From NCBI GenBank assembly GCA_934276635.1, contig CAKQTH010000001.1, forward strand, positions 200,098-264,097: a stretch of 64,000 bases of DNA, in the 5' to 3' direction. The notes beneath the pieces are model-generated. The model saw nothing but the letters and a program-made list of their open reading frames with translations, was not told the origin of the DNA and made no database searches. This DNA comes from an uncultured Alphaproteobacteria bacterium. GTDB lineage: Bacteria; Pseudomonadota; Alphaproteobacteria; RF32; CAG-239. Shown here piece after piece: positions 10,950-64,000 of this stretch. The stretch's first letter is position 1. Each line of letters opens with the position of its first letter. The position numbers were made by a program, and so were the translations under genes.

Positions 10950-11095
10950 ATTTTTCCCTTTCGTATACATCTTATATTAGCGGCTTTTTTTTAAATTTTA
11001 ACAACTATTTTCATTTTTTTAAAAATGATTGATGACAAACGCGATTTTTTGCTCTATTTTAGATAAAAATATAAGGATATATAGGGAGTGTAATT

Positions 11096-11620
11096 TTGCA
11101 CAATACTTTTTCAAAAGAAGATGCGAAGGCGTTCAAAGTCGGCCTTTTTGTGTCGATAATTTTGCTTTTTGCCGGCGTTTATTTTATAAATTCGCAGCAG
11201 AAGTTTGCAAAGGTAGATGACGGCAAATATTATCAGCTGAAGGCCAGATTCGGCCGCACTGACGGGCTTTTGACCGGCGATTTGGTTCGGCTTTCCGGCG
11301 TTGATGTCGGCAGAGTTATCAAGGCGGACCTAGATGACGAGTTTAAGGCGGTGTTGACCTTAGAAGTCAAAGATGATGTCAAAATTCCGGACGACAGCAG
11401 CGCATCGATTGTCAGCTCGGGGCTTATGGGATCAAAATATATTGAAATAGATGTCGGAAGTTCGGAAGATTATCTTGAACCGGACGGAGAATTTGAATAC
11501 ACGCAGGACGCAATGGTTATAGAAGAGTTGCTTGACCGCATTGTCGGAATGGGCAAAACCAAGCGCCAAAAACAAGAAAATTCAGCAGAAGAAATATTCG
11601 AAGGAGAAGATGATGAATAA
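11096..11620 (+). CDS. mlaD: MlaD/MCE-domain protein (paralog 1), TTG start
   Basis: N-terminal TM helix plus a single MCE domain (GDLVRLSGVDVGRV). AGGGAG RBS before the TTG start. Confidence 0.7.
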   Translation: MHNTFSKEDAKAFKVGLFVSIILLFAGVYFINSQQKFAKVDDGKYYQLKARFGRTDGLLTGDLVRLSGVDVGRVIKADLDDEFKAVLTLEVKDDVKIPDDSSASIVSSGLMGSKYIEIDVGSSEDYLEPDGEFEYTQDAMVIEELLDRIVGMGKTKRQKQENSAEEIFEGEDDE

Positions 11621-12074
11621 AAAACCGATAGAAACCATTATGGGCCTTGTTGTATTGATTGTGGCCGGATTGTTCCTGCTGTTTGCCTATCAGGTATCCG
11701 ATCTGCAGGTGGTTAAGGGCTATGAAATCCGCGCAGATTTTTCAAAAGTCGGCGGTTTGAGCGTCGGTTCCGATGTTCGCTTAAACGGCATCAAGGTCGG
11801 CACGGTTGTTTCGCAAAAACTCAACAAAGACACATATAATGCAGAAGTCACGCTCAGTCTTTCTCCTGATTTGAAATTGCCGAAAGACAGTGAAATTGCG
11901 ATTGCTGCGGACGGTCTTTTGGGCGACAAGTTTATCAAAATCGAGCCGGGTACATCAACAGAGTTTTTTGCAAACGGCGATACCGCAACAAATGTAAAGA
12001 ATTTCAAAACTTTGGAAGATATGGTCGGCGAAATTATCTTTATGGTGACGGACAATGGGGATAAAAAAGAATAA
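11610..12074 (+). CDS. mlaD: MlaD/MCE-domain protein (paralog 2)
   Basis: TM helix plus MCE domain (DVRLNGIKVGTV). The start ATGATG overlaps the stop of paralog 1. Confidence 0.7.
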   Translation: MMNKKPIETIMGLVVLIVAGLFLLFAYQVSDLQVVKGYEIRADFSKVGGLSVGSDVRLNGIKVGTVVSQKLNKDTYNAEVTLSLSPDLKLPKDSEIAIAADGLLGDKFIKIEPGTSTEFFANGDTATNVKNFKTLEDMVGEIIFMVTDNGDKKE

Positions 12075-12705
12075 TATCGGCGTTTGGGCTCTTGCTTTTT
12101 TGCTCGGGTCGGCGTTTTCTGCCGGAGCGGTCGAGATTGAGCGCAATACGGCGCAAATGCAGGCGATGGACAAGATTACGGGCCGCGTCAGCATTATAGA
12201 AGTTCCGGTCGGCGGCGAGGTCAAATTTGGCACTTTTTCGATTGTGGTGCGCAAATGCAAGACTCGTAGTGCGGAAGAAACTCCTGAAAATTTTGCCTTC
12301 GTCGATGTGGCAGATAGCTCGTTCGGCGAAGAACCGTTCAATATCTTTAAGGGTTGGATGCTGTCTTCAAATCCGGCGATAAATCCGGTAGAACACCCGA
12401 TTTATGATGTCTGGCTCTTAAAATGCATAAACGCCAAAGTTGATGCCGATGCGCTTTTGTCCCCGATTGCGATGGAAGAAAGAGACAAGCTTCCGTCTGT
12501 TCAAAAAATTTCGGAAGAGAGCAGATCGCTCAAAGAAAATACTTTGACCGAAAAAGCGCCTGAAGAGCAAGCACAAGAGCAACCGCAAGCGGAGGTTCAG
12601 ACAGATGCGCAAACAGAACAGCAAGAGCCGATTGCCGCGCCGGAAGCCGAAAGCGATGATGACTTTTTGCAGGCCATAAATCAAGAACTCGAAAATTTGG
12701 AATAA
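12055..12705 (+). CDS. DUF2155-like secreted protein
   Basis: Signal peptide plus conserved core (GRVSIIEVPVGGEVKFGTFSI...CKTR). C-terminal acidic Q/E-rich tail. Confidence 0.5.
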   Translation: MGIKKNNIGVWALAFLLGSAFSAGAVEIERNTAQMQAMDKITGRVSIIEVPVGGEVKFGTFSIVVRKCKTRSAEETPENFAFVDVADSSFGEEPFNIFKGWMLSSNPAINPVEHPIYDVWLLKCINAKVDADALLSPIAMEERDKLPSVQKISEESRSLKENTLTEKAPEEQAQEQPQAEVQTDAQTEQQEPIAAPEAESDDDFLQAINQELENLE

Positions 12706-12708
12706 ACG

Positions 12709-13656
12709 ATGGAAAATCAGATAGATGTAAGCTTTGTAATGACGGTTTATAATAAGGAATATTATCTTCCGTCGGTGTTAAAGGCTTTGCTCGGGCAAAC
12801 CGGGTTGAAAAATCCGGAATATATCTTTGTGGACGACAACTCTTCGGACAAGTCGGTTGAGATAATCCGCGAGATGACCAAAGATTTGAAAAATGTCAAG
12901 ATTTTTGCCAACAAAGACAACAAGGGCATCAGCGTTCGCATCAATCAGGGGATTATGGCGGCAAGCGGAGAATATACCCGCATGCTTGATTCCGATGATA
13001 TTTTTCCGCTCGATTCGACAGAGAAGATGTTGAAAATCGCGCGGGAATACAATGTTGATATGGTATACGGAAACTTTATCAAAACCGGACAAAAGCCGCA
13101 CAAACTCGAGCATTGCACGCTTGAGCCGTTCAGCATCAAAAAATATGACGATGCGATGCGCGCCATTTTGAGCGGCAGATATACCCGAATGGGACAACTG
13201 ATAAAAACATCTGTTTTGCAGGCTGCCGGCGGGGCAGACGAGCGGATATTCGTTCAGGACGAGAGCATACCTCTGCGTTGCGGAATTTTGTCTCATGGGA
13301 TTGCAAAAATCAGTGCGAATGTTGTGTTGGTGCCAGAAGAAATCGGCAATGCGTCAGGCAACAAGTCGCAGCTCAACTTTGATCGGTTTTTCGCCTATTA
13401 TTGGATTTTGCGCGAACACCGCGATTTGCCGAAAGACATATTGCAAAAACTGTATATGCGTGCGGTTTCCGCATATTGGAAACAGGTGAAAAGAACGGCG
13501 AAAGCTCCGTTTTTGAGCAGTGCGTTTTTCAGATATATTATGTGCAAGGCGCGCAAACCGCTGCCGGACTTTAAGTATTTGGAAAAAATGAAAAAATCGT
13601 TTTTAATGCTTGATAATGTCAGAAAAATGCAATATTCTGATAATCAGCAGGTATAA
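12709..13656 (+). CDS. family 2 glycosyltransferase
   Basis: VSFVMTVYNKE...DDNSSD...DSDD GT-A motifs. Confidence 0.8.
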   Translation: MENQIDVSFVMTVYNKEYYLPSVLKALLGQTGLKNPEYIFVDDNSSDKSVEIIREMTKDLKNVKIFANKDNKGISVRINQGIMAASGEYTRMLDSDDIFPLDSTEKMLKIAREYNVDMVYGNFIKTGQKPHKLEHCTLEPFSIKKYDDAMRAILSGRYTRMGQLIKTSVLQAAGGADERIFVQDESIPLRCGILSHGIAKISANVVLVPEEIGNASGNKSQLNFDRFFAYYWILREHRDLPKDILQKLYMRAVSAYWKQVKRTAKAPFLSSAFFRYIMCKARKPLPDFKYLEKMKKSFLMLDNVRKMQYSDNQQV

Positions 13657-13680
13657 AATTATTTGGAAAGGAATCAGATT

Positions 13681-14289
13681 ATGAAAATAAACGAGAGCGG
13701 TCGTTCGATGATTGAAATGTTGGGTGTATTGTCGATTATCGGCGTATTGTCAACCAGCGGTATCGCGTTATACAGCAAAGCGATGGATAAAAGAAAAACA
13801 AGTGTGGTTATTGATCAAGTTTCGGAGCTTGCGAATAATATTCATAATGTTTATATGTCCAGAAGAAATTATAGCGGCTTAAAACTTAACGGAGAAGGTG
13901 GAATAATAAAGTCAGGTGATAAGCATAAGATTATTCCTGCCAGTATGTATGTAAAAGACAATGGCGAATTATCAGCAGTGCGTCACGCTCTTGGCAAAAA
14001 AGATGAAAAGATTGACCTTGCTGCTGCTTCAGATAATGATAAATATTTTTATATTACTGCGCCTTTGTCCGATAATGTTAAGACATGTGTTTCTTTGGTT
14101 ACATCAGATTGGGGTGAAGGAAATTATGTTTGTGTTGGAGAAGTGAAAAGTCAAGGAGATGCAAAAAAAGCAGCCAATAGTACTAGCAAAACATGTGCGG
14201 AAGGGTCTATGGATACTTCAACCGCATCAGGCAAAGATCTCTGCCAAGCCTGTAAAGGAAGTTGCACAGTTTCATTTATAATGAGATAG
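13681..14289 (+). CDS. type IV pilin-like protein (prepilin-type N-terminal cleavage/methylation domain)
   Basis: MKINESG|RSMIEMLGVLSIIGVLS: short leader, Gly at -1, Glu at +5 and a hydrophobic helix. C-terminal Cys pair. Visibly lower GC than neighbours. Confidence 0.6.
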   Translation: MKINESGRSMIEMLGVLSIIGVLSTSGIALYSKAMDKRKTSVVIDQVSELANNIHNVYMSRRNYSGLKLNGEGGIIKSGDKHKIIPASMYVKDNGELSAVRHALGKKDEKIDLAAASDNDKYFYITAPLSDNVKTCVSLVTSDWGEGNYVCVGEVKSQGDAKKAANSTSKTCAEGSMDTSTASGKDLCQACKGSCTVSFIMR

Positions 14290-14434
14290 ATAATCGTGAT
14301 TTCAGAAAAAGGCATCTGTTTAGGTGCCTTTTTTGTTGCTCAAAGGGTGTGAAATATGCTCAAAATATGCTTTGACAGCAAAAACACATTGTGATAATTT
14401 TCTGTTAAATACCGATAAAACACAGGTGGTTGCA

Positions 14435-14896
14435 ATGCAAAAAATCGAAAATTTTACTGATGACGAAACGCGTTTTCTCTCAAACTTTTATCCGCACAAA
14501 AAAGACGGCGGAAAATATCCGCACAAAGTTTGCGTCACATATAACGGACACACTTTTGACTGTGTGGAAACCGCGTATCAGGCGGCAAAATACATTGATT
14601 CCGCAAAGCAGGCTCAGTTTGTTTTAATGTCCCCTTATGAGGCCAAAGACTATTGGGAAAATCGCACGGATTGGCGTTCGGATTGGCACGATATAAAACT
14701 TTCGATTATGCAGGATTTGGTTTGGCAAAAATTTTCAAATTCTCCGGAATTGGCAAAAATGCTGCTTGAAACCGGTTATGCGGTTTTGGAAGAGGGAAAC
14801 GATTGGGGCGACACATTTTGGGGAATATGCGACGGGAAGGGCGAAAATCATCTCGGAAAGATTTTGATGCATACCCGCGAAAAACTCCGCAAATAA
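14435..14896 (+). CDS. NADAR (YbiA/DUF1768) family protein
   Basis: FLSNFYPH...ETAYQAAKY...NDWGDTFWGICDGKGENHLGKILMHTR motifs. Start chosen at MQKIENF. Confidence 0.7.
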   Translation: MQKIENFTDDETRFLSNFYPHKKDGGKYPHKVCVTYNGHTFDCVETAYQAAKYIDSAKQAQFVLMSPYEAKDYWENRTDWRSDWHDIKLSIMQDLVWQKFSNSPELAKMLLETGYAVLEEGNDWGDTFWGICDGKGENHLGKILMHTREKLRK

Positions 14897-14899
14897 GTC

Positions 14900-15310
14900 T
14901 TATTTTGCCACGCAGTTGTTGCCTGACCAACTCCAGCCTCTTATAATTCCTTCAAAAATCAAAAACGATGTTTGGCATACGCGCGATACCTCAACCCCGA
15001 GATATTGCTGCATCGGGTTATAGTTATACATATCGGCAAACGGATAGTAGATGTCTTCAACTCCGGGAAACGGCTGGTCGTTATATTCATAAAATTCTGA
15101 CGGAACATACATCTCTTCCAGATTGGTATAAGTCAAAATTTTTGTGTCTTTGTTTATGATATTTTGTGCGCTCGGCCTGCCGAATTTTTGCAACAGGGCG
15201 CTTTCCGGCTGATTTAAGAGTCCGTTTAGTTTCTTGTCATATTTTTGTGTTGTGGCGCAGGCTAGCAAAAACATTATGAGCATCAGACAAAAGCTTATTT
15301 TTTGTATCAT
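14900..15310 (-). CDS. hypothetical lipoprotein
   Basis: Signal peptide with lipobox LLAC. No family recognised. Confidence 0.45.
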   Translation of the reverse strand: MIQKISFCLMLIMFLLACATTQKYDKKLNGLLNQPESALLQKFGRPSAQNIINKDTKILTYTNLEEMYVPSEFYEYNDQPFPGVEDIYYPFADMYNYNPMQQYLGVEVSRVCQTSFLIFEGIIRGWSWSGNNCVAK

Positions 15311-15470
15311 TTTTTCTCTCCGAGATGTTTCGTTTGCCTAAAATGTATGAAAAAAGCAGGATTTTTCAAGTTATACCAAAGGATAAACCGAAATGAAAAA
15401 TATGTTTGCAAAATATCTTTTTAGTTGATAAAACAGTGAAAATTATTTTGATAGATTCGGGCTTTTTAAT

Positions 15471-16025
15471 ATGAAAAAAATTTTGTTTGTTGCGGCTTTT
15501 GCTGCCGTGTTTTGTTTCGGATCTGCCGCTTTGGCCGCAGACGATGAAGAAAGTTGGTTTTCAAAGTGGAAAAGCAATGTTTCCGCTGTTGCCGATTCGT
15601 CAAATTATGACTTGTATATCCCGGCGTATGCGTGGCACAACCGTCTGACATATGATCAGGAACATATTGATAAATATAATGAAAACCCGTGGGGCGCCGG
15701 CGTCGGCAAACATATTTATGACAATAACGGGCATTGGCACGCGCTGTATGCGATGGCGTTTAAGGATTCTAACAAACACCTTGAAACAATTTTCGGCTAT
15801 GCTTATCAATACAACTGGTATTTTGGCGAGGCAAAAGATTTTATTGCCGGCGTCGGATATACTCTGAGCCTTACTCAACGCTCCGAATATGCATATATTC
15901 CGGTACCATTGCCGCTGCCGGTGTTTGGCGTCGGATACAAAAAACTCAGCGTTCAGGCCGCATATGTTCCAGGGGTGAAAAATGACGGAAATGTGCTGTT
16001 TACCTGGGTAAAAATAGAGCTTTAA
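15471..16025 (+). CDS. pagP: lipid A palmitoyltransferase PagP
   Basis: YDLYIPAYAWHNRLTYD...YNENPWGAGVG...GHWHALYAMAFKDS...YIPVPLPLPVFGVGY...GNVLFTWVKIEL is collinear with enterobacterial PagP. Confidence 0.8.
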   Translation: MKKILFVAAFAAVFCFGSAALAADDEESWFSKWKSNVSAVADSSNYDLYIPAYAWHNRLTYDQEHIDKYNENPWGAGVGKHIYDNNGHWHALYAMAFKDSNKHLETIFGYAYQYNWYFGEAKDFIAGVGYTLSLTQRSEYAYIPVPLPLPVFGVGYKKLSVQAAYVPGVKNDGNVLFTWVKIEL

Positions 16026-16042
16026 GCACTGTTTTGAGCAAC

Positions 16043-16074
16043 AAAAAACGGTAGAATTTCTACCGTTTTTTTTA
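16043..16074. terminator. bidirectional rho-independent terminator
   Basis: aacggtag-aattt-ctaccgtt hairpin flanked by an A-run and a T-run, between the convergent pagP and ptsN genes. Confidence 0.55.
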
Positions 16075-16090
16075 TAGTTGTGAAAAAATG

Positions 16091-16534
16091 CTAACTCTTC
16101 AAAATTGCGAACATTTTATCTCTTCTGGTGCATTCACGCAGTTTGGCGCATCTTTTCTCGTCTTTCAAAACTCTTGAAATTGTGGCAAGTGCAGTCAGGT
16201 GATCGGCGCCGCTGTTTTCCGGAGAAATCAGCATAAACACCAAATCAACTGGCTTGCCGTCAGCCGATTCAAAATCAATCGGTTGGTCTGTTTTTGCAAA
16301 AAAAGCCTTTACTTTTTTCACATCGGGAATGCGTGCGTGCGGAAACGCCGTTCCTTCACCGAAACCGGTACTGCCCAAACTTTCACGTTCAAGCAATGCA
16401 TCAAAGATCACACGCGAGTCAATATCAAGAGCTTTTGCGGCCTTATCAGCCAACTCTTGCAACAAATCGCGTTTGCTGCCCGCCTTCAAATCGGCGAATA
16501 CATTTTTTTCTGCCAAAATATCAGAAAGCTGCAT
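16091..16534 (-). CDS. ptsN: PTS IIA-like nitrogen regulatory protein PtsN
   Basis: EIIA-Ntr fold with FGEGTAFPHARI around the active His. Confidence 0.8.
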   Translation of the reverse strand: MQLSDILAEKNVFADLKAGSKRDLLQELADKAAKALDIDSRVIFDALLERESLGSTGFGEGTAFPHARIPDVKKVKAFFAKTDQPIDFESADGKPVDLVFMLISPENSGADHLTALATISRVLKDEKRCAKLRECTRRDKMFAILKS

Positions 16535-16545
16535 TTTTTTGTGTC

Positions 16546-17112
16546 CTAATTTTCAGCCTTAGGCTCAACCCAGCCGATATTTCCGTCTTTGCGGCGATAT
16601 ACCATGCTGATATGATTGTTGGCCACATTTCTGAACATCAAAGCCGACTCGTTTTCCAAATCCATATACATAACGGCTTCAGAAACCGTGCAAACCGGAA
16701 TGTTTACATCTGTTTCGGCAATGGTCAAAGGAGCATCGATATTGATGTCAACTTCTTCTTCTGTTTCCATCAACGGATAAACAGCGGCGTTGGCAACTTC
16801 GCTCATGCCGGTCTTGCCCTTGTGATCCTTCAATTTTGTTTTATGACGACGAAGACGGGTTGCAATATGTTCGCAAGCGTTGTCAAATGCCGAATACGGA
16901 TCGCCGGCGGCGCCTTCGCCCTTCAAGATAATGTTTTTAGCCGGATGAACCGTAACTTCTGCGCTGAAATCTTCGCCTTCCTTAGAAAAAGCGACATTGC
17001 AGCTGATCGGAGCGCTAAAATACTTGTTAACGGAATTGGTAATATTCTCTTCAACATGATTGCGGAGTTTATCGCCAATATCAACCTGTTTTCCTGTCAA
17101 TGTAATTTTCAT
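16546..17112 (-). CDS. hpf: ribosome hibernation promoting factor (long HPF)
   Basis: MKITLTGKQVDIGDKLRNHVEE N-domain plus the C-terminal dimerisation domain. Confidence 0.85.
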   Translation of the reverse strand: MKITLTGKQVDIGDKLRNHVEENITNSVNKYFSAPISCNVAFSKEGEDFSAEVTVHPAKNIILKGEGAAGDPYSAFDNACEHIATRLRRHKTKLKDHKGKTGMSEVANAAVYPLMETEEEVDINIDAPLTIAETDVNIPVCTVSEAVMYMDLENESALMFRNVANNHISMVYRRKDGNIGWVEPKAEN

Positions 17113-17219
17113 AATTTTTCCTTGTTATAATATAGTTTAATTAAACAAACGCGGGATAAAACCCGTTTCCCCTCATATGGTAACCCGATTCTATCAGAGC
17201 TGAATAAAAAATGCAAGCA

Positions 17220-17969
17220 TCATAATGAAAAATGTTCACCGAGATATACTTTTCTGACATCTTTGTCCGAAACAATCTCGCTCGGAGTGCCTTCCATCAA
17301 CACGCTGCCCGAGTGTAATATATACGCTCTGTCAATAATATCAAGGGTTTCACGCACATTGTGGTCCGTAATCAGAACCCCGAGACCTTTGTGTTTCAGC
17401 TGTGCGACCAGACCCCTGATTTCACCGACCGCAATCGGGTCAATACCGGCCAGCGGCTCGTCAAGCAATATATATTTCGGCTGACTGGCCAATGCACGCG
17501 CAATTTCAAGCCTTCTGCGTTCACCGCCCGACAGCGCGATTGACGGAGATTTTCTCAAATGAGCAATCGAAAATTCGTTCAGCAGCTCTTCAAGCATATT
17601 TTCACGCTTGTCTTCATCATCAATCACCAGCTCCAAAATCGCCTTAATGTTGTCCTCAACGCTCAGACTGCGGAAAATTGAAGCCTCTTGCGGCAAATAT
17701 CCGATACCGAGGCGGGCGCGGCGGTACATCGGCATTGTCGTGATATCTTGGCCGTCAATATGGACATCGCCGTAATCCGGAGTAATCAAACCCGTAATGC
17801 AATAAAAACAAGTCGTTTTGCCGGCGCCGTTCGGACCCAAAAGCCCGACTGCTTCACCGCGCTTCACATTAAGCGAAACATTGCGCAAAACCGTTCTGTT
17901 CTTATATTTTTTGCCGATATTGAAAACTTCAAGTACGGAATTGTTATCCTGATTGTTTTTTTCTGCCAT
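17220..17969 (-). CDS. lptB: LPS export ABC transporter ATP-binding protein LptB
   Basis: Walker A GPNGAGKTT, signature LSGGERRR and Walker B LLDEP. The start is refined to MAEKNNQ, 1 nt after the upstream stop. Confidence 0.85.
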   Translation of the reverse strand: MAEKNNQDNNSVLEVFNIGKKYKNRTVLRNVSLNVKRGEAVGLLGPNGAGKTTCFYCITGLITPDYGDVHIDGQDITTMPMYRRARLGIGYLPQEASIFRSLSVEDNIKAILELVIDDEDKRENMLEELLNEFSIAHLRKSPSIALSGGERRRLEIARALASQPKYILLDEPLAGIDPIAVGEIRGLVAQLKHKGLGVLITDHNVRETLDIIDRAYILHSGSVLMEGTPSEIVSDKDVRKVYLGEHFSL

Positions 17970-17970
17970 A

Positions 17971-19074
17971 TTATCTGCTCCGAATTTCGGTTGTTTTAAG
18001 TTTTTTGAATGTTCCTCGAACACGCGAGTTGTTGTTTTTTGAGACGATTTTGCTGAGACCGGTGTTGAGGTCGGTTGTGGCATAGTCTCCGAAAATTTTG
18101 TTTCCGTCTTGCTCGATTACAACATTGTCAAACAGCTCTATGAGCCCGTTTTTTGGTGAATATTCTGCGCGGGAGGCGTGCACCGTTCCTTTTTCGGACA
18201 CAAGTTTTACATTGCTTTTTGCTGACAAAGATTCAATTTCGGGCTGGTTTTCGCCGTCTTTATAAAAAATGGTGATTTCATCGGCAAACAAGGTGTTCCC
18301 GTCGGTCATAACTTTTGCATTGCCCTCAATCACGATTTTCTTTTCGTTTTTATATAAAGTGACGATTTTTGAAGAGTTGATAATCACATCGTCCGGCTGA
18401 TGACAAATTTTTATATCGGTTTTTCCCAACAGATTGAAAATATTATTTTTGTTATCAACTTGAAAACCTTTACTCTTCATGGTGCCGTAAACTCCGGCCG
18501 CCACAACATCGGACTTTCCTTCGCCGGTAGAAGTTTTGAAATCAAAATTGAAGTTTTTGGTCGAAAGGCTTGTTTCGTTATTATAATTTACAAACACATC
18601 TTCAGTCATCATAATACGGTTGTTGCTCTGGTCAAAATATCCGGAAGACGACATAATGTCGGCAAACGCATCGTTTTTGAGAGGAACATTCGCATGCGGA
18701 TTGCTGAGCTTGATAACCTTTGAAGAGGGTTTTGTCTCGTCAATATTATCGGCCGTAAGCTGACTGATTTGATTGTCCGCATCGGTAACATAAAATTTTG
18801 TGCTTTCGATATGGAGCTTTTCAAGTTCGCCTTTTTTGGGCATTGTGACATCAAAACTGATGCTTTTTTGCGAAGATTTCAGGTGCGGAAAAACCATCAG
18901 CAAACCGATAAGCGCCGCCGCAATCGCCGGCAGAATCAGCTTGATAAATCTGATTTTTTTTTCGTGCACGCTGATTTTTATTTCGGAATCTTCCCGTTTC
19001 AGAGATTCTTCACTCGCAAATACGGAATCAATTTTTTTAAGGTCAAACACTAAGCAACTCCGGCGCGCAAGCAA
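17971..19074 (-). CDS. LptC/LptA-like OstA-domain protein (possibly fused)
   Basis: N-terminal TM helix and two OstA-like beta-jellyroll segments. Directly upstream of lptB. The start is uncertain because it overlaps the kdsD stop. Confidence 0.5.
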   Translation of the reverse strand: MLARRSCLVFDLKKIDSVFASEESLKREDSEIKISVHEKKIRFIKLILPAIAAALIGLLMVFPHLKSSQKSISFDVTMPKKGELEKLHIESTKFYVTDADNQISQLTADNIDETKPSSKVIKLSNPHANVPLKNDAFADIMSSSGYFDQSNNRIMMTEDVFVNYNNETSLSTKNFNFDFKTSTGEGKSDVVAAGVYGTMKSKGFQVDNKNNIFNLLGKTDIKICHQPDDVIINSSKIVTLYKNEKKIVIEGNAKVMTDGNTLFADEITIFYKDGENQPEIESLSAKSNVKLVSEKGTVHASRAEYSPKNGLIELFDNVVIEQDGNKIFGDYATTDLNTGLSKIVSKNNNSRVRGTFKKLKTTEIRSR

Positions 19075-36876: not shown

Positions 36877-38634
36877 GTGTCTGAACAAAATTTGTCATTG
36901 GGCGGAAATTTGTGGAAAATAAAAAATGCGGACGAAAGAAGCGCCGAGCTTTTGGCGCAGAGGTTTGATATTCCGCTGATTGTGGCAAAATTGTTGGTAC
37001 AAAGAGGTATCAATGCAGATACGGCAGACAGCTTTTTGAACCCCAAACTGCAAAACCTGATGCCTGATCCTTATGTTTTGAAAGATATGGAAAAAGCGGC
37101 AAAAAGGATTGCAGATGCCGCGCAAAATTCCGAAAAAGTCGGCATTATCGGAGATTATGATGTTGACGGAGCCACATCTTCCGCACTTTTTGGGTTGTTT
37201 TTGGAAAGCGTCGGCGTGCGGTCGACAACGCATATTCCGGAAAGAGATGAAGGATACGGCCCGAGCGATACTGCATTTGCCGAATTTGCGGCAGAAGGCA
37301 TAAAATTGGTGATTACGACCGATTGCGGCACAACCGCGTTTGATGTCTTGAACAAGGCGGCAGGCGAAGGTTTTGAGATTATTGTAATTGACCACCACGA
37401 GGCAGAGGCAAAGCTTCCAGATGTTGAAGCGGTTGTGAATCCCAAAAGGCTTGATGATGAGGGAAAATGCCCGTATCTGCGCTTTATGGCGGCGGTCGGA
37501 GTTGTGTTTTTGACTGTCGTTGCGGTCAATCGCGAGCTTAGAAACCGCGGATTTTATAACACACGGCCGATGCCCGATTTGAAAAATTGGCTCGATTTGG
37601 TAGCGCTCGGAACCGTGTGCGATGTTGTGCCTCTGGCCGGGCTGAACCGTGCGTTTGTGCGGCAGGGACTGCGGGTTTTGGCACAGCGCAAAAATCACGG
37701 ACTGAAGATGTTGACGGACAAAGCCGGCATAAGCAATTTCCCGACTTCGTATAATCTCGGCTTTTCGCTGGGGCCTCGGATTAATGCCTGCGGAAGAGTA
37801 GGACAGGCGTCTTTGGGCAATCGTCTGCTGAAGGCAAAAGACGATGTTCAGGCCTCGCTTATTGCCGATAAAATGAACGAGTTTAATGAAACCCGCAAGC
37901 AAATTGAGGCTTATGTGCTGCTTCAGGCGGTCGAGATTTTGGAAAGCACTCCGCAGGAATATCCGATTGCGTTTGTTTACGGGCGCGACTGGCATCAGGG
38001 AGTTATCGGGATTGTGGCCGGAAAACTCAAAGAAAGATACAATCTTCCGGCTTTTGTGATGTCGATTGAAGAAGACGAAGTCAAAGGCTCGGCGCGCTCA
38101 ATTTCAGGCGTTGATTTGGGCGCTTTGATTATTGCGGCAAAAGAAAAAGGCCTGATTACCAAAGGCGGCGGACATATTATGGCGGCCGGATTTTCGCTTG
38201 AAGAAGACAAAATCGAAGAATTTCGCAGCTTTGTCGGACAAGAGGTTAAGCGCCAGCTTGACGGACAGCAGATTTTGCCGACGCTTGAGATTGATGCGGA
38301 GCTGGAACTGGGCGGAGCAAACGCCGATTTGGCCGAAAAAATCGCGATGTTGGAGCCGTTCGGCGCCGCAAATGAAGAGCCTTTGCTTGAAATTGTGAAT
38401 ATTCAGCTTAGCTCTCCGATGATTATCGGCAGCGGCCATGTTCGTTGTTTTTTGCGCTCCGACAACGGAAAAAGCCTGAAGGCCATAGCGTTTAAGGTTG
38501 CGGACAGCGAGCTTGGGAAAGCGTTGTTGACAGGAGCCGGCGACAGGTTTAATGTTGTCGGATATCTGAGAGTTGACAACTGGCAAAATCAGAATTTGGT
38601 ACAGTTTGTTATAGTAGATGCAAAGAGGTTATAA
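36877..38634 (+). CDS. recJ: single-stranded-DNA-specific exonuclease RecJ (GTG start)
   Basis: DHH motifs (IIGDYDVDGATS, DHH) plus DHHA1 and a C-terminal OB domain. Confidence 0.9.
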   Translation: MSEQNLSLGGNLWKIKNADERSAELLAQRFDIPLIVAKLLVQRGINADTADSFLNPKLQNLMPDPYVLKDMEKAAKRIADAAQNSEKVGIIGDYDVDGATSSALFGLFLESVGVRSTTHIPERDEGYGPSDTAFAEFAAEGIKLVITTDCGTTAFDVLNKAAGEGFEIIVIDHHEAEAKLPDVEAVVNPKRLDDEGKCPYLRFMAAVGVVFLTVVAVNRELRNRGFYNTRPMPDLKNWLDLVALGTVCDVVPLAGLNRAFVRQGLRVLAQRKNHGLKMLTDKAGISNFPTSYNLGFSLGPRINACGRVGQASLGNRLLKAKDDVQASLIADKMNEFNETRKQIEAYVLLQAVEILESTPQEYPIAFVYGRDWHQGVIGIVAGKLKERYNLPAFVMSIEEDEVKGSARSISGVDLGALIIAAKEKGLITKGGGHIMAAGFSLEEDKIEEFRSFVGQEVKRQLDGQQILPTLEIDAELELGGANADLAEKIAMLEPFGAANEEPLLEIVNIQLSSPMIIGSGHVRCFLRSDNGKSLKAIAFKVADSELGKALLTGAGDRFNVVGYLRVDNWQNQNLVQFVIVDAKRL

Positions 38635-39356
38635 TGCAGGATAAAATCAAAAGAGCACGCAATATCAAAGAAATAAGAGAAAATAGGCTGAAACGGGAAA
38701 AGGCTGCTTTTATGAAGCTCGGTGCAAAAATAAAAGCATATTTCTTTACCGGAATTTTGGTGACGGCTCCGGTGGCCATAACTTTTTATATGGCATATAA
38801 GCTGATATTTTTTATTGACCGCTTTGTCAGCAAGTTGATTCCGCCTCGTTTTTCGCCGGATCAATATTTGCCGTTTACAATCCCAGGGCTCGGAGTGATA
38901 GTTTTGGTTGCGGCGATGATTTTTGTCGGTATGTTTGCGGCCGGATTCGTCGGAAAGATTATGATTCGCCTCGGTGAGTGGATTGTATATAAGGTTCCGT
39001 TTATCTCAAGCGTATATTCTTTGTTTAAGCAGATTTTCGAGACATTTTTTTCAAATAAAAACCGCTCGTTTGAAAAGGCCGTATTGCTGGAATATCCGCG
39101 CGAAGGATTGTGGGTTATCGGCTTTGTCAGCTCAAAAACCAAAGGTGAGGTTCAAAAAAAACTTGAAGGCGAGATGCTGAATGTTTTTGTTCCGACAACT
39201 CCGAACCCGACTTCCGGATTTTTGCTTTTTGTGCCGGAAGAAAAGGTGATTTATCTGGATACGCCGGTTGAAGAATGCCTGAAATTGGTGATTTCTTGCG
39301 GAATTGTCGAAGCCGAAGAAAAAGTTTCAAAAAAAATAAGACACAAAAAACAATAA
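38634..39356 (+). CDS. DUF502 membrane protein
   Basis: Two N-terminal TM helices and a conserved DUF502 core. ATG overlaps the recJ stop. Confidence 0.65.
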   Translation: MQDKIKRARNIKEIRENRLKREKAAFMKLGAKIKAYFFTGILVTAPVAITFYMAYKLIFFIDRFVSKLIPPRFSPDQYLPFTIPGLGVIVLVAAMIFVGMFAAGFVGKIMIRLGEWIVYKVPFISSVYSLFKQIFETFFSNKNRSFEKAVLLEYPREGLWVIGFVSSKTKGEVQKKLEGEMLNVFVPTTPNPTSGFLLFVPEEKVIYLDTPVEECLKLVISCGIVEAEEKVSKKIRHKKQ

Positions 39357-39404
39357 ACTAGACTTTTATTCGCCCGAAACCGGCTCTATATATACTGAAA
39401 ACTG

Positions 39405-39433
39405 TTGCAAAAAATAAAAAAATAAGGTATAAT
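39405..39433 (+). promoter_or_regulatory. sigma70-like promoter (TTGCAA, 17-nt spacer, TATAAT) for the cysteine-rich protein gene
   Basis: Near-consensus -35 and -10 hexamers with a 17-nt spacer. The leader to the RBS is about 85 nt. Confidence 0.4.
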
Positions 39434-39527
39434 CTTTACAAGACAAAATTGCGGAGAATCGTTTGTCACATTATCAAAACGAGTATCGGCGAACAGTCTT
39501 ATGTGTGTGTATTATAGGAGTACGAAT

Positions 39528-41957
39528 ATGAAAAAGTTGGGGATGGCGATTCTGTTCGCCTGTTTGGCATATTCCTTTATTGAGGTATCGCCTGTTAATG
39601 CCGGCGTCTGTTTTGTGGTAAACGGGGACTGCGGCCAAAAAATCACGGTAAAGCCGAAAGGTTGTGAAAATTTGGGAGGCATGGAAGACTGCGTCAAAAA
39701 CGGAATGCTCCCGGATTATGAGTCGGCAAAACAGTGTACCTCGGGTGGAGTTGTATATACAAGCAAATGTTTGTGCGATCCAGACAGATTTCCGTATACA
39801 AAAGACGGGCTTAAAGACAACGCCTATTATGAAGCCGGCGGAGAAACCTGCAAAGACCGAACAGGTACATATTACGCTTGGGAGATTTGTCGCGCATCAT
39901 ATAAATATACATTAAATCAAAATGATGTTGACGCAATCAAAAATGAATCTCCTAAATATCATAATGGTGCTGCGGTTTGTGAAAACAGATCAATGGTGCC
40001 GTTTACAAGCCCCTGGTTTTGCACGGAAAAAGACGGAGTATCGTCTTCTTTCAGCAGATATACCAGCTGTGATTGTGACACGAGCATATACAAATATAAC
40101 TCAACAAATAAGGGACTGTACGCATTGTCGGGTGTAATGTGCAAGGGAACCGACAATGTTGAGAGATATACGGCGCTGGCATGTCCTACAATGTATCCGT
40201 ATAAAAAATGTACCGGAGATTTGGTTGATGACAAAATAATGCCGAGTTCTGGTGAAGCAAATTTTGATTGTTATACCTGCAAATGCGCGGCAAAGTTTGA
40301 ATATCCGTCAACTTTGGGCAACAGCATAATCGGTAGCGGAAACCAATGCGATACAAAATGGGATAACTATAAATGTCCGACAACCTATCCGTTGCAAAAA
40401 TGCACCGAAACAACGACATACGCATGTGAAAAAATCACATCGACCGTAAACTCTAAGGCCGTTTGTTATAAACAGGCCAAAAAGCCGACATGTGCGGAAA
40501 TCGGCGGATTGACATTGGCGGAAAAGAATGCGGAGCCTGCGGCTAAAACAGCTTTGTATGACTATAAAACGGCATCGCAAATCAGCGTGGACGACAAAGG
40601 CGTCGGTTGTTACTTCAGAATCCCGAAGACTTGCGAACAGTTGAAATACAGCCAAACGAAAACGGAAGCGGGGCATGGATATACCATATCCGACTATTAT
40701 ACTTCAAAACCATTGGCCGGATTAAGAATCTATCCCGAAACAAAAACATTCCCTGATGCATATACTGGAAATTATACAGGCAAAGTTTCTTCAAGAGTAT
40801 GTTTCAGAAAGCATTCGGACTGCGTGGCCGGAGATGCGTTAACAACAAGCGGACATTGTATGCCTAAAACAACTGGTATTGGTATCATCGGTTGGACCGG
40901 AGCCTCTGCTTACAGCGGTTATGGTGTTAACAGCACAAAAATAGGTATGGTTATTTCGAAGAGCGGCTCCGGATCAACAATCAGCGTCAATTATATTCCG
41001 TTGACTGATGCCGGATATTATCCGAAATATAAAAGATGGTCTCCATATAGTGACGGATCCGGATATGTGTATAAGGATAATTCCGGTAATAAAATTGAAA
41101 TAACCGGAGCATATGACAGCGTAAGCAATATGATGAATATCAGTCAAGCCAATACACTTATATCTAATTTGACGGCATATAAAGATATGGGTGGTACTGT
41201 GCATAATACAACCCGCACTCTGGTTAAAAATACGACTGACGATAAAGATTGGAAAGGCACTTCATCAATAAAAGTCAGAGAGTGCTATTATGTTAAAAAT
41301 ACTGCCACAACAGGAACATATGCTTATGTCAGAAGAGTTGTTCTGGACCCGAACACTAGCGGAGTTGTTTCGGCCACTAACAAGAAAAAACCGCGGTTTT
41401 TGTACGGAGTCCATGCATATGCGGAAGGCCCTGCCGCTCATAAAGTATTGTATGACGAAGACGCAAACGGAAATACTGCAGAACACAAAATTACAATGAA
41501 CAAATTAAACAACTTTACAACTTGGGATAAAGATGCAGATGTTCAACCGGCTCGTATCTATCGTTCATTTAATGCAAAAGAAGAAAAAGCTTGCGGTGTA
41601 CACGGAGCATCTCCTCAAAAAGGAAGAGCTTATGTTAACTCCTATGCGGAAGAAAATGACACGGCAATATTCCAAGTATATTATTGCCAGTTGCCAATGT
41701 ACTTCAGACGCCCTAACAGAACATGCGTCAAAACTCACAATGCGGATACAGGTACTCCAGAAGCAAATTGTTGGGTAACTCAATGGTTGAGGGCTGGTCT
41801 TGGTGATGGATTCTTGAGTTGTCCCGATGATATATGTACGGTTGCATATACCGGAGACAGCACGGCAAAATGGGGAACTCAAGGCTGTTATGTTAAGTCA
41901 GTACTGACTAAAACATCGACGGTTTCAAGAGGAACAAATTGGACTAAGATATATTAA
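39528..41957 (+). CDS. large secreted cysteine-rich protein (about 810 aa) of unknown function with internal CPTxYPxxKCT repeats
   Basis: Signal peptide MKKLGMAILFACLAYSFIEVSPVNA. More than 40 Cys in the N-terminal 430 aa. ACPTMYPYKKCT and KCPTTYPLQKCT repeats. G/S/T/Y-rich C-terminal half. No family recognised. Confidence 0.65.
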   Translation: MKKLGMAILFACLAYSFIEVSPVNAGVCFVVNGDCGQKITVKPKGCENLGGMEDCVKNGMLPDYESAKQCTSGGVVYTSKCLCDPDRFPYTKDGLKDNAYYEAGGETCKDRTGTYYAWEICRASYKYTLNQNDVDAIKNESPKYHNGAAVCENRSMVPFTSPWFCTEKDGVSSSFSRYTSCDCDTSIYKYNSTNKGLYALSGVMCKGTDNVERYTALACPTMYPYKKCTGDLVDDKIMPSSGEANFDCYTCKCAAKFEYPSTLGNSIIGSGNQCDTKWDNYKCPTTYPLQKCTETTTYACEKITSTVNSKAVCYKQAKKPTCAEIGGLTLAEKNAEPAAKTALYDYKTASQISVDDKGVGCYFRIPKTCEQLKYSQTKTEAGHGYTISDYYTSKPLAGLRIYPETKTFPDAYTGNYTGKVSSRVCFRKHSDCVAGDALTTSGHCMPKTTGIGIIGWTGASAYSGYGVNSTKIGMVISKSGSGSTISVNYIPLTDAGYYPKYKRWSPYSDGSGYVYKDNSGNKIEITGAYDSVSNMMNISQANTLISNLTAYKDMGGTVHNTTRTLVKNTTDDKDWKGTSSIKVRECYYVKNTATTGTYAYVRRVVLDPNTSGVVSATNKKKPRFLYGVHAYAEGPAAHKVLYDEDANGNTAEHKITMNKLNNFTTWDKDADVQPARIYRSFNAKEEKACGVHGASPQKGRAYVNSYAEENDTAIFQVYYCQLPMYFRRPNRTCVKTHNADTGTPEANCWVTQWLRAGLGDGFLSCPDDICTVAYTGDSTAKWGTQGCYVKSVLTKTSTVSRGTNWTKIY

Positions 41958-41972
41958 TGATACGGCAAAACA

Positions 41973-42005
41973 AAAAAACGGCGGTGAAATTATCCGCCGT
42001 TTTTG
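41973..42005 (+). terminator. rho-independent terminator
   Basis: acggcgg-tgaaattat-ccgccgt hairpin followed by TTTT. Confidence 0.6.
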
Positions 42006-42125
42006 GTGTGATACGCAGCATAAATGTCTGCCTTTCGCTTGTAGTCAAACCCCTTTCTCCGGTGTTCTCACCCGCCGCACTGCGACACAAAAAAAGCTGT
42101 TTTCAAAAAGAAAACAGCCTTTTAA

Positions 42126-42201
42126 TGGTACGCGCGCGGGGGTTCGAACCCCGGACCCACTGATTAAGAGTCAGTTGCTCTACCAACTGAGCTACGCACG
42201 C
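42126..42201 (-). tRNA. tRNA-Lys (anticodon CTT)
   Basis: Manual fold: 76 nt; acceptor stem with G1-U72 and U4-G69 wobble pairs; D-arm GCTCAGTTGGTAGAGC; anticodon loop CTCTTAA; T-arm CGGGG-TTCGAAC-CCCCG; encoded CCA. Confidence 0.85.
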
Positions 42202-42353
42202 ATAATCCGTAAATCTGACCGGAATATAACCCGTATAATTTTTTTTTGCAACCACTTTTTTTATTTTTTTTACAAAACTGTTATTTTATGTTTGAAAAAT
42301 GAATATTATCTGCTAATAATATGGAAAATTTTTGCTGTTTAAGGAGAAAAATA

Positions 42354-44612: not shown

Positions 44613-44642
44613 ATTGAGCCTCATTTTTGAGGCTCTTTTTTT
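44613..44642 (+). terminator. rho-independent terminator
   Basis: gagcctca-ttttt-tgaggctc hairpin followed by TTTTTTT. Confidence 0.5.
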
Positions 44643-44827
44643 GAGCAGTCGGCAGAGTTTTTGTCTTTCGGCTTACCTTTTGTGCAACCGCATTTTTCAT
44701 CTGCAACATCGCATGACGGACATGTAAAATCGTGTCCCATATTGTTCGGATAGGTGCAGCCACAGTTGTCATCTTCGCGGCAGTCGCAGCGGTTTTCATA
44801 GTCATAATAGCATTTTGATTTTTCCAT
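44621..44827 (-). CDS. small cysteine-rich protein (about 68 aa, 10 Cys), possibly metal-binding
   Basis: ORF with GAGGT RBS 6 nt before ATG (MEKSKCYYDYENRCDCREDDNCGC...). Its 3' end overlaps the hydrogenase terminator, and a terminator hairpin lies just upstream. Confidence 0.35.
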   Translation of the reverse strand: MEKSKCYYDYENRCDCREDDNCGCTYPNNMGHDFTCPSCDVADEKCGCTKGKPKDKNSADCSKKEPQK

Positions 44828-44901
44828 ATTATACCTCATAAAAAAGACCGATAATCGTATCGGTCTTTTGATATAATCGCTGTGCGGCAATTTTAAATGA
44901 G

Positions 44902-62248: not shown

Positions 62249-62325
62249 GGGCCCTTAGCTCAGTTGGTTAGAGCAGACCGCTCATAACGGTCCGGTCGTT
62301 GGTTCGAGTCCATCAGGGCCCACCA
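62249..62325 (+). tRNA. tRNA-Met or tRNA-Ile2 (anticodon CAT; G1-C72, so not an initiator)
   Basis: Manual fold: acceptor GGGCCCT/AGGGCCC, D-arm GCTCAGTTGGTTAGAGC, anticodon stem GACCG/CGGTC, loop CTCATAA, T-loop TTCGAGT with one U-U mismatch in the T-stem, and encoded CCA. Confidence 0.8.
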
Positions 62326-62326
62326 T

Positions 62327-62360
62327 ATAAAAAGAGGATGTTTCTATCCTCTTTTTTTTA
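62327..62360 (+). terminator. rho-independent terminator after the tRNA
   Basis: aagaggat-gtttct-atcctctt hairpin followed by TTTTTTT. Confidence 0.55.
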
Positions 62361-62511
62361 TGCATTGATGAGGCCTTAAGAGCCCAGTGTTTGCGGGGTT
62401 TGTGAGATTTGGCGTTTCAATTATGATGTGAGCATACGAACCACCGCTAAGAGATTTTTCATTAAAATTAAGAAAAATAGATACTTTTGGATTGACCTCG
62501 TCCAAAACAAA

Positions 62512-62540
62512 AAACGCCTATTTTAGGCGCTTTTCTTACC
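62512..62540 (-). terminator. rho-independent terminator serving the minus-strand island genes
   Basis: aacgcctA-TTTT-aggcgctttt hairpin with a T-run on the minus strand, about 75 nt downstream of the stop at 62615. Confidence 0.4.
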
Positions 62541-62614
62541 ACCCAACCTCGCACCCTATATCCATGACCAGACTAAAGTTGCGAACCATAGACCACTTGG
62601 GTGAGAGTTTAAAA

Positions 62615-63433
62615 TTAATTAGAACATTTTAATGTATAAACAAAGTTTTCATCTTTGAAACATCTGTTCCATTGGCACAGAAAAATATTTTCAAATTTTG
62701 AGGAGAATAAGTGTTTTTTTAATGAATTGGTAAAATGACAATAATTACCTGTTAAAACATCAGGTATATATACCAGAAGGAAACATTTATCACATTTTTT
62801 AAGGTAATTAGTAATTTTTTTATTTTTACTATCAATTGTTTCTTGAAGTTCATCAAGCGGATCTTCTTTACTATAACACTCGTTATTTACATTACAATCA
62901 AATTTGTTATCCATATTGGGGATAGCGGTAATTGTGATATTAAAATATTCATCCTGGACTTGAATTGTTTCTTTAATAAGATGTGGCCATTGTTTTAACT
63001 TTTCGACATTTCTATCAATAATTCGTTCTATACCTGATTTAATTTCATTTTTATTATAAATATCCCAAAATCCAGGATTATAAATAACATCTAAAACTTC
63101 TTGGCGTGTTCGAGCACACCATTTTCTTTTATCCCATTTATCAATTAAAACAGATATGTTAAGATTATGCTTCTTTTGCGCATATGCACGTGTTTGGTTG
63201 CCAATACTCATAAGGTGTTGAAGAGCTCGTCCATGTTGGCTTTTGACGATAAACTTCGTTATTTCCAACCCAATTGTTTGATTATCTTCTGTAGTAAAAA
63301 CAAAATCAGGATGTTCAGTCTCTATGTGTGACTTTATTTTATTTTCTTTATGCCAATTTTTACCTTCATCTGAGGCTAAAAAGTAATTCAAATATTCCCA
63401 TTCTTCTGCTTTTTTGTTTTCATTTTTAGACAT
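62615..63433 (-). CDS. hypothetical protein with a putative PD-(D/E)xK nuclease motif (272 aa)
   Basis: HPDFVF...GLEITKF matches the PD-x(n)-ExK spacing. Very AT-rich. 2 nt downstream of the Mrr-like gene, so probably an operon. Confidence 0.45.
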   Translation of the reverse strand: MSKNENKKAEEWEYLNYFLASDEGKNWHKENKIKSHIETEHPDFVFTTEDNQTIGLEITKFIVKSQHGRALQHLMSIGNQTRAYAQKKHNLNISVLIDKWDKRKWCARTRQEVLDVIYNPGFWDIYNKNEIKSGIERIIDRNVEKLKQWPHLIKETIQVQDEYFNITITAIPNMDNKFDCNVNNECYSKEDPLDELQETIDSKNKKITNYLKKCDKCFLLVYIPDVLTGNYCHFTNSLKKHLFSSKFENIFLCQWNRCFKDENFVYTLKCSN

Positions 63434-63435
63434 AT

Positions 63436-63858
63436 TTATTCCTTGTCTACAAAATATACAGGGCTAATTGGCATTAAAGCCTTATCCTCATCTTTCATTT
63501 TTTCGTAAAACTCCTGCCATAACTCAATAAAACGCTCTAAATCTATCAATTCTATATGAGGGCTGGAGTGCTTAAATTCTTTTAAGGCATCAGAAGCAAA
63601 ACCTGAAATTGATATAAAAACACCAATATCATTTGTAGTTAAAATACCTTTTAATTGTCTTAGTCCTTGCGATGTTGCTTTTGTATCCTGACGATATTTT
63701 ATCTGAATTTTAATGTGAGGTGTCGTGCTCCCAATAGGGTCTTTATATGCTATAACATCAACACCACCATCTTTACCTTTAGGCGCAATAAAAGGCGTAT
63801 AATATCCCATGCCTCTAAACAGTGCGCCGCATAATTCTTGAAAACTGTATGGGGTCAA
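63436..63858 (-). CDS. Mrr_cat-type restriction endonuclease catalytic domain protein (N-terminus apparently frameshifted; TTG start in the ORF track)
   Basis: GKDGGVDVIAYKD...HIKIQIKYRQ...GVFISISGFASDA...IELIDLERFIELW is collinear with the Mrr catalytic domain (DGGIDG...QAKRY...GVFITTS...LIDGERL). Confidence 0.6.
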   Translation of the reverse strand: MTPYSFQELCGALFRGMGYYTPFIAPKGKDGGVDVIAYKDPIGSTTPHIKIQIKYRQDTKATSQGLRQLKGILTTNDIGVFISISGFASDALKEFKHSSPHIELIDLERFIELWQEFYEKMKDEDKALMPISPVYFVDKE

Positions 63859-64000
63859 ATTCTTCTAATATAAATTTTGTAAACGATTGATTTGCTTTAG
63901 CTCTGGCATCATCTAATAAAGATGATACTTTCTGAGTAACTTCTTCAATTTGTTCATCAGGCACATCTTTATTGCTTGTTTTGGTAAGCGTTTCTTTTTT
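63845..64000 (-). pseudogene. upstream partial ORF running off the window end, in a different frame from the Mrr_cat ORF (putative N-terminal part of a frameshifted Mrr-like gene)
   Basis: The minus-strand frame reads ...DVPDEQIEEVTQKVSSLLDDARAKANQSFTKFILEEFDPIQF then stops. The sequence FDPIQF would splice naturally onto QELCGALFRGMGY of the Mrr_cat ORF after a 1-nt shift at a T4 run. Confidence 0.3.

Follow-up and report, generated by a model that had tools for sequence, protein, structure and literature searches.

Within 64,000 nucleotides (nt) of contig CAKQTH010000001.1 from an uncultured alphaproteobacterium (positions 200,098 to 264,097 of the forward strand; hereafter the window), an intact gene at 39528-41957 (+) encodes an 809-amino-acid (aa) protein with a Sec signal peptide, a conserved cysteine-rich N-terminal region and a C-terminal half that is replaced between strains within nearly identical flanking DNA. 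Replacement of the 3' part recurs in family members from three species, and the gene has an elevated ratio of non-synonymous to synonymous change. We tentatively read the product as an exposed or released binding protein or surface antigen, in which a disulfide-stabilised stalk would carry a polymorphic head, a reading that is plausible and falls short of being probable. The reading with the best support has two parts after the signal peptide: a stalk of duplicated cysteine modules, presumably disulfide-bonded, and a polymorphic C-terminal head under diversifying or relaxed selection.

Export signal and cysteine modules

The protein is divided as follows.

39528-39602 (+): Sec signal peptide, aa 1-25, with a predicted signal peptidase I cleavage between VNA and G; n, h and c regions read from the sequence
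39603-40646 (+): conserved cysteine-rich N-terminal region, aa 26-373 (28 Cys), the family-defining part, from a 14-sequence alignment
39690-39896 (+): module A, copy 1, aa 55-123, with the pattern C..Y..CxCD..[FY].Y...Y..G..C...Y...C, from profile-profile comparison with aa 151-221
39978-40190 (+): module A, copy 2, aa 151-221, from hhalign against aa 55-123
40113-40277 (+): module B, copy 1, aa 196-250, containing CPTMYPYKKCT at 40182-40214, from hhalign against aa 263-315
40314-40472 (+): module B, copy 2, aa 263-315, containing CPTTYPLQKCT at 40374-40406, from hhalign against aa 196-250
40647-41957 (+): polymorphic C-terminal region, aa 374-809 plus the stop codon, rich in T, G, S, Y and N, with 11 Cys, from allele comparison

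The signal peptide consists of MKK, LGMAILFACLAYSFI and EVSPVNA, followed by G at the cut. An (A/S/V)-x-A cleavage motif and then x-V-C-F are kept in 14 of 14 aligned family members, and the mature N-terminus x-V-C-F-(V/I/L)-V (x-VCF-x-V) is common to all members. A lipoprotein was considered and rejected: the lipobox [LVI][ASTVI][GAS]C is absent, N-A-G-V precedes Cys28, position -1 is Val in 14 of 14 sequences, and position -2 is G, R, K or D. Cysteines make up 4.8% of the protein: of 39 overall, 29 fall within the first 430 aa, the signal peptide contributing one of these. Residues invariant in the 14 sequences are V27, C28, F29, C35, C46, C55, C70, C81, C83, Y101, C121, C151 and C165, ten of which are cysteines. 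CxC pairs occur at aa 81, 181 and 251, and a CxxC pair at aa 248.

The motifs CPTMYPYKKCT (aa 219) and CPTTYPLQKCT (aa 283) align locally with z = 4.9, a score reached by none of 500 shuffles. Profile-profile comparison of sub-alignments confirms the repeats and shows units larger than this 11-aa motif: aa 196-250 match aa 263-315 with an hhalign probability of 93% (E 2.6e-7), and aa 55-123 match aa 151-221 with a probability of 96% (E 1.6e-9), the single-sequence test for the latter pair alone being weak (z = 2.7). The N-terminal half therefore consists of duplicated modules, each about 55-70 aa long, in a chain. The C-terminal half differs in composition (T 11.1%, G 9.2%, S 7.9%, Y 7.3%; 8 Cys). 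This layout agrees with an earlier model-generated interpretation of the DNA letters (hereafter the sequence-only reading), which had described a large, secreted, modular, cysteine-rich protein of no recognisable family, with CPTxYPxxKCT repeats, CxC and CxxC pairs, and a G/S/T/Y-rich, Cys-poor C-terminal half; its figure of more than 40 cysteines in the N-terminal 430 aa was wrong.

Replacement and rapid evolution of the C-terminal half

Three strains of the species could be compared at this locus. Sister strain L001 has 97% DNA identity to the window over 10.5 kb; identity is 97-100% in flanking 300-nt segments and 86-96% in the gene interior. Rates of non-synonymous (dN) and synonymous (dS) change between the window and L001 were estimated by the Nei-Gojobori method. 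Six flanking genes, pooled, gave dS 0.080, dN 0.003 and a dN/dS ratio (omega) of 0.035. For the cysteine-rich gene, dN was 0.064, about 20 times that of its neighbours, and omega was 0.47, with 0.30 in the N-terminal half and about 1.05 in codons 401-700. The proportions of non-synonymous and synonymous differences in the gene and in its flanks differ (Fisher p = 3e-20).

In the second sister strain, L004, the allele (protein P0002) follows the window at 97% identity as far as 40645 (aa 373), which is four residues past the last conserved Cys; from there no DNA similarity is found until just past the stop codon, where identity returns to 100%. The two C-terminal halves are non-homologous as DNA, yet their proteins are 37-38% identical and thus divergent homologues. 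In another species, with the gene at another locus, L008 and L005 part at aa 358, and identity resumes past the stop codon. In a third species, again at another locus, L068 and L067 part at aa 118, and identity resumes past the next gene, a second cysteine-rich gene that has been swapped together with the 3' part of the first. Across these 3' replacements in three species the flanks are 95-100% identical. Because the breakpoint pattern recurs in all three, we describe the family as one whose front is conserved and whose rear is exchanged by recombination. No silent C-terminal cassettes were found in the window or in all retrieved loci. In a neighbourhood that is otherwise 97-100% conserved, no part evolves faster or recombines more than the distal half of this gene. 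A lineage-specific exported protein with such a half is a good candidate for what these bacteria present to the host immune system, phages or competitors.

Family distribution and related cysteine-rich genes

A word-indexed search of 5.8 billion proteins returned five clusters, and a full HMMER search with the family profile against 1.84 billion representatives returned 15 proteins. All placed family members come from uncultured gut Alphaproteobacteria; those of this clade are almost unstudied. Beyond about aa 250-370 the members diverge into at least five unrelated C-terminal types. The window's own type occurs only in P0001 (90% identical), P0002 (38%), P0006 (35%) and the fragment P0009; P0006 has 916 aa and a different repeat-rich middle. 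A word-indexed search with the C-half profile found only P0001, P0002 and P0009. A pattern scan returned no relatives in GTDB genomes, IMG/VR viral contigs or JGI metagenome contigs; the 14-sequence alignment is too diverse for deriving search patterns. A literature search found no description of this cysteine-rich protein family.

Further secreted cysteine-rich genes occur around family members and in related bacteria. Directly after the family member lies a second one in L005 (10025-11041), L007 (1798-2985), L067 (10997-11779) and L068 (1741-2430). These second genes share related TCYKC and CPxGY motifs and have no Pfam match, and some end in a Gly-rich tail (GLVVGPGGTGGG...) that is found too at the C-termini of P0010 and P0011. 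Secreted cysteine-rich ORFs (open reading frames) of related gut Alphaproteobacteria in L029 (17137-18911, minus strand) and L034 (7033-7401, minus strand) carry recurring C-x-x-(L/M)-G-Y and C-x-A-C-P...Y-W-x-C motifs. The family searches did not detect these ORFs as members, and they hint at a wider superfamily of cysteine-module proteins in the clade.

Homology and structure searches

The window protein matched no family in Pfam, NCBIfam or PHROG (Pfam-A, 0 matches at E ≤ 0.1). Searches of Pfam, NCBIfam and PHROGs with seven to ten other family members returned nothing above noise, and no toxin, enzyme or phage family. AlphaFold2 modelled the N domain, from the 14-sequence alignment, as short beta-hairpin elements with a mean predicted local distance difference test (pLDDT) of 79 and a predicted template modelling score (pTM) of 0.46, the latter being what an elongated chain of small modules should give. 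Foldseek found no significant match for this model (best E 1.4 in the PDB and 0.45 in BFVD); the top matches, all non-significant, were complement-receptor CCP chains. The sole signal for the N-terminal half among PDB sequences was a Y-x-C-P-x-G-Y...C module against C4b-binding protein (73 columns, E 0.003). Its cysteines are not consistently aligned, and the match is a motif-level resemblance rather than homology. The C-half profile matched nothing among PDB sequences even at E 10. The cysteine-module fold and the family match nothing in current sequence or structure libraries.

Several known classes were considered and set aside. A CCP/Sushi module has about 60 aa, four invariant Cys and a conserved Trp; membership was rejected on the absent Pfam Sushi match, the misaligned cysteines relative to C4b-binding protein and the Foldseek E of 1.4. 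An autotransporter, outer-membrane beta-barrel or S-layer protein was rejected because the Pfam results contain no beta-barrel, SLH or other S-layer anchoring domain; the last residues of the alleles, ...KIY, ...NIAN and ...ALAQ, share no terminal aromatic pattern or C-terminal signal. A phage tail fibre, receptor-binding protein or other phage-derived origin was rejected on the lack of a PHROG match, the BFVD Foldseek E ≥ 0.45, the housekeeping neighbours and the lack of IMG/VR relatives in the pattern scan.

Proposed role of the protein

As a binding protein or surface antigen, the product would be exported by Sec, cut by signal peptidase I and begin, as a mature chain, with the invariant x-VCF-x-V. 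About 350 aa of small cysteine-rich beta-hairpin modules, which arose by internal duplication, would be locked by disulfide bonds formed in the periplasm into a rigid, protease-resistant stalk. The C-terminal 435 aa would form a separate head, the variable and selected part, which is exchanged between strains by recombination at the junction of stalk and head and changes its amino acids about as fast as silent positions change. The diversifying pressure may come from outside, as host antibody or mucus, phage or competitors. The absence of toxin family matches, of an ORF before tRNA-Lys and of viral-contig relatives was counted in favour of this reading. The sequence-only reading had proposed an adhesin, a toxin or an S-layer-like protein. 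An extracellular or surface role fits the fast evolution and C-terminal replacement, and the three roles are not separated by the evidence; the toxin option is weakened by the missing immunity gene and the homologous C-terminal halves, and no SLH or S-layer anchoring domain appears in the Pfam results.

Other observations weigh against a surface-exposed binding protein. The dN/dS estimate comes from one pair of alleles, and an omega near 1 fits relaxed constraint equally well. The AlphaFold2 model of the C-terminal half, from a 5-sequence alignment, has a pLDDT of 42.6, is unusable and was excluded from the fold search; because the structure of this half is unpredictable, the notion of a binding head derives from composition and evolution. 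A Sec signal in a diderm reaches the periplasm only, and an outer-membrane translocation or anchoring signal was not found (no lipobox, beta-barrel or known C-terminal sorting tag). Disulfide formation is assumed for an organism that has an [FeFe]-hydrogenase and is probably anaerobic, and no Dsb gene was seen in the 64-kb window. How a protein with about 19 potential disulfides would be folded and exported in a probably anaerobic diderm is a question that the gene raises, and its practical value is limited until a location or binding partner is established.

A broader proposal, which we regard as doubtful, is that the family represents an unrecognised class of bacterial surface antigens in which eukaryote-like stalks of disulfide-bonded mini-modules carry interchangeable heads, varied by cassette exchange at the population level. 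If true, uncultured gut Alphaproteobacteria would use these proteins for interaction with host or phage, the family would parallel, in bacteria, the cysteine-rich variant surface proteins of protozoa, and x-VCF-x-V would be a new sorting or anchoring signal.

Gene boundaries and expression signals

The interval 39357-42125 is the entire space between a DUF502 gene (38634-39356, Pfam E 1e-33, stop at 39356) and tRNA-Lys(CTT), and contains one long ORF, 39501-41957. Within this ORF, ATG 39528 (MKKLGM...) is taken as the true start because AGGAG lies 7 nt before it and every homologue begins at this codon, whereas a sister strain has ATT in place of the ORF's first ATG (39501), which is thus not conserved. 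The flanking signals are the following.

39405-39433 (+): predicted sigma-70-like promoter, TTGCAA-17 nt-TATAAT, matching the consensus at 10 of 12 positions
39434-39527 (+): 5' leader (about 88 nt), which includes the AGGAG ribosome-binding site (39516-39520), read from the sequence
41980-42001 (+): intrinsic-terminator-like hairpin, GGCGG-loop-CCGCC followed by TTTTTGG, kept in L001 and L004
42126-42201 (-): tRNA-Lys(CTT), a convergent neighbour that marks the boundary outside the gene (ARAGORN; Rfam 69.7 bits)

Both sister strains, L001 and L004, have exactly this -35 hexamer; the -10 hexamer of L001 reads TACAAT, and the leader is nearly invariant across the three strains. The fold of the leader RNA is not significant (z = -1.74), and the leader has no Rfam match. 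A 31-nt imperfect inverted repeat, 71% complementary, joins 39404-39434, the gene's promoter-like region around GTTGCAAAAAA...TATAAT, with 42222-42252, upstream of tRNA-Lys on the opposite strand; its simplest explanation is a pair of similar A/T-rich promoters that face each other. The tRNA-Lys has its own terminator hairpin at 42096-42118, and its 3' end points toward the cysteine-rich gene. Between the stop codon (41957) and tRNA-Lys (42126) lie 168 nt with two terminators and no credible ORF, hence no adjacent immunity gene. The sequence-only reading had placed the gene correctly, between DUF502 and tRNA-Lys and adjoining the tRNA 3' end, and its sigma70 promoter and leader of about 85 nt are close to those given here; the terminator that it called strong has a 7-bp stem with 4 G-C pairs and is adequate only.

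Genomic context and origin

The neighbours are ordinary chromosomal genes, in the order Lon, DUF374, KdtA, LpxK, DUF192, RecJ, DUF502, the cysteine-rich gene, tRNA-Lys, a DUF748/AsmA-like gene, [FeFe]-hydrogenase, GreA and others. Contigs of Hadza human-gut metagenomes match the window at 100% identity. Its RecJ is at most 67% identical to those of metagenome-assembled genomes of uncultured gut Alphaproteobacteria such as HGM16780 and Candidatus Scatocola, and GTDB representatives do not include the species. About 30 related species retain DUF192-RecJ-DUF502, and none has the cysteine-rich gene there; the next gene after DUF502 is tRNA-Leu(GAG) in about 12 of these species. The tRNA-Leu(GAG) of the window is 8.7 kb farther along, behind housekeeping genes that include GreA and the [FeFe]-hydrogenase; therefore the region has been rearranged, and not merely received an island. 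A small cysteine-rich ORF at 44621-44890 (-), between the [FeFe]-hydrogenase gene and greA, is annotated with 68 aa in the public contig, and the ORF list allows up to 89 aa. It contains about 12 Cys, in CxC and CxxC patterns, and has no signal peptide and no Pfam match.

The total G+C content (GC) of the gene is 0.42, like its flanks. Its GC at third codon positions (GC3) is low (0.39), and its codon usage is the most deviant among the long genes of the window (distance 0.134 versus 0.080 ± 0.020); together these are a mild signal. There is no integrase ORF between 36 and 45 kb, and neither an att-like copy of the tRNA-Lys end nor any other repeat bounding the gene turned up beyond chance or promoter-like A/T-rich matches. 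Membership of a tRNA-linked genomic island was accordingly rejected, given the missing integrase and tRNA-end repeat, the normal GC and the only mildly deviant codon usage.

Synteny between L001 and the window ends at 42007, right after the terminator of the gene and before the tRNA position; therefore the gene lies outside whatever inserted at that junction. Because the synteny breaks there, the tRNA-Lys junction is a variable spot, with the cysteine-rich gene on its conserved side. Downstream of the orthologue, L001 carries at least 8 kb of unrelated genes in the tRNA-Lys position (10479-18427), with no tRNA within 8 kb. They encode a 386-aa protein with PG_binding, YkuD and Tlde1 matches, a lysozyme-like 215-aa ORF, a DUF3768 protein and several small signal-peptide ORFs, and this segment resembles an effector/immunity islet. 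Several independent metagenome contigs with an identical DUF748 gene begin within or beside tRNA-Lys (window 42017-42170), which points to heterogeneous strains in natural populations, or to breaks in assembly, at this junction. At the far end of the window (62249-64000), GC falls to 0.29-0.35 right after tRNA-Met(CAT) (62249-62325). The codon usage of two minus-strand ORFs in this part is very atypical (GC3 0.21 in 62615-63433), and the product of ORF 63436-63858 (-) looks, from its sequence, like the N-terminal domain of an Mrr-type restriction endonuclease. As an acquired islet linked to a tRNA, this segment is a stronger candidate than the cysteine-rich gene.

Alternative explanations

The main rival is a polymorphic toxin or bacteriocin-like effector, in which export or target-cell binding would fall to the conserved N-terminal region and killing to the interchangeable C-terminal part, on the pattern of CdiA, Rhs, MafB and S-type pyocins. 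We consider it unlikely. A conserved N-terminal part with non-homologous C-terminal DNA cassettes at one locus, in three species (aa 373, 358 and 118), is what such a system would produce, as are at least five unrelated C-termini across the family, and the Tlde1/YkuD-like, lysozyme-like and small secreted ORFs downstream in L001 resemble an effector/immunity islet. However, the space from the stop codon to tRNA-Lys is free of ORFs in both the window and L004, which leaves no adjacent immunity gene, and the genes downstream in L005, L007, L067 and L068 encode cysteine-rich proteins with signal peptides rather than typical immunity proteins. The alternative C-terminal halves of this species are mutual homologues (37-38% identity) and not different toxin folds. 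No member has a Pfam or NCBIfam toxin family, the C-terminal half has no match among PDB sequences, and the protein has a Sec signal peptide and no marker domain of a type V, VI or VII secretion system (T5SS, T6SS or T7SS).

An improbable second alternative is a periplasmic or envelope structural protein, disulfide-cross-linked into the envelope as a functional analogue of chlamydial OmcB. Structural envelope proteins are normally conserved, whereas this gene is absent from the site in about 30 related species and from GTDB species representatives, has a dN about 20 times that of its neighbours and has its C-terminal half swapped between strains. These observations stand against a Sec signal with no recognisable outer-membrane export or anchor signal, a Cys content of 4.8% with invariant Cys positions, and neighbours that include KdtA, LpxK and a DUF748/AsmA-like protein, all of which would suit an envelope role; the neighbours are, however, separate transcription units, and the gene has its own predicted promoter and terminator. 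Lateral acquisition as cargo of a small genomic island at the tRNA-Lys 3' end, which concerns origin and not function, had also been proposed by the sequence-only reading and is very unlikely. The gene adjoins the tRNA 3' end, is missing from the DUF502 locus of related species (often DUF502 and then directly tRNA-Leu(GAG)) and deviates most in codon usage among long window genes, with GC3 0.39, and metagenome contigs often break at the tRNA-Lys junction. Its GC is nevertheless that of its surroundings, no integrase, transposase or direct repeat of the tRNA end is present, the L001 breakpoint between terminator and tRNA leaves the gene on the conserved side, the housekeeping genes between DUF502 and tRNA-Leu indicate rearrangement, and family members of other species sit at other chromosomal loci. 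Of that proposal, absence from about 30 species and a mild codon deviation stand, and they support acquisition through tRNA-Lys weakly at best.

Comparison with known systems

Small cysteine-rich beta modules chained as elongated extracellular stalks, as proposed here, are found in eukaryotic CCP/Sushi domains, TNFR cysteine-rich domains and Giardia variant surface proteins. This likeness is at the level of motifs (C4BP E 0.003; Foldseek E ≥ 0.45; no Pfam Sushi) and is not evidence of homology. Chlamydial OmcB, for which an adhesin or envelope role has been proposed, is likewise large, Sec-exported, cysteine-rich and made by a diderm, and it is conserved within its genus. The protein described here resembles it in size, export, cysteine content and diderm host, but has no homology to it (no Pfam match), is restricted to one lineage and is polymorphic. 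In Campylobacter fetus, an animal-associated bacterium, the surface-layer proteins SapA and SapB owe their antigenic diversity to variable C-terminal regions joined to a conserved N-terminal region that serves as anchor. They are poor in cysteine, use type I secretion instead of a Sec signal, and vary by rearrangement among silent cassettes of one genome. The present family shares with them the conserved N-terminal and variable C-terminal regions, but is cysteine-rich, carries a Sec signal, has no silent cassettes in the retrieved DNA and shows no sequence similarity. With polymorphic toxins (CdiA-CT, Rhs, MafB and S-type pyocins) it shares a conserved N-terminal part and C-terminal cassettes recombined at a fixed junction with the flanks kept. 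Unlike them, it has no adjacent immunity gene, toxin domain or T5SS, T6SS or T7SS trafficking domain; it has Sec export and a cysteine-rich N-terminal part, and the alternative C-terminal halves of this species are divergent homologues rather than unrelated folds. The logic of the architecture, a conserved N-terminal part joined to a variable, recombining C-terminal part, is familiar from these systems; the protein family itself is new.

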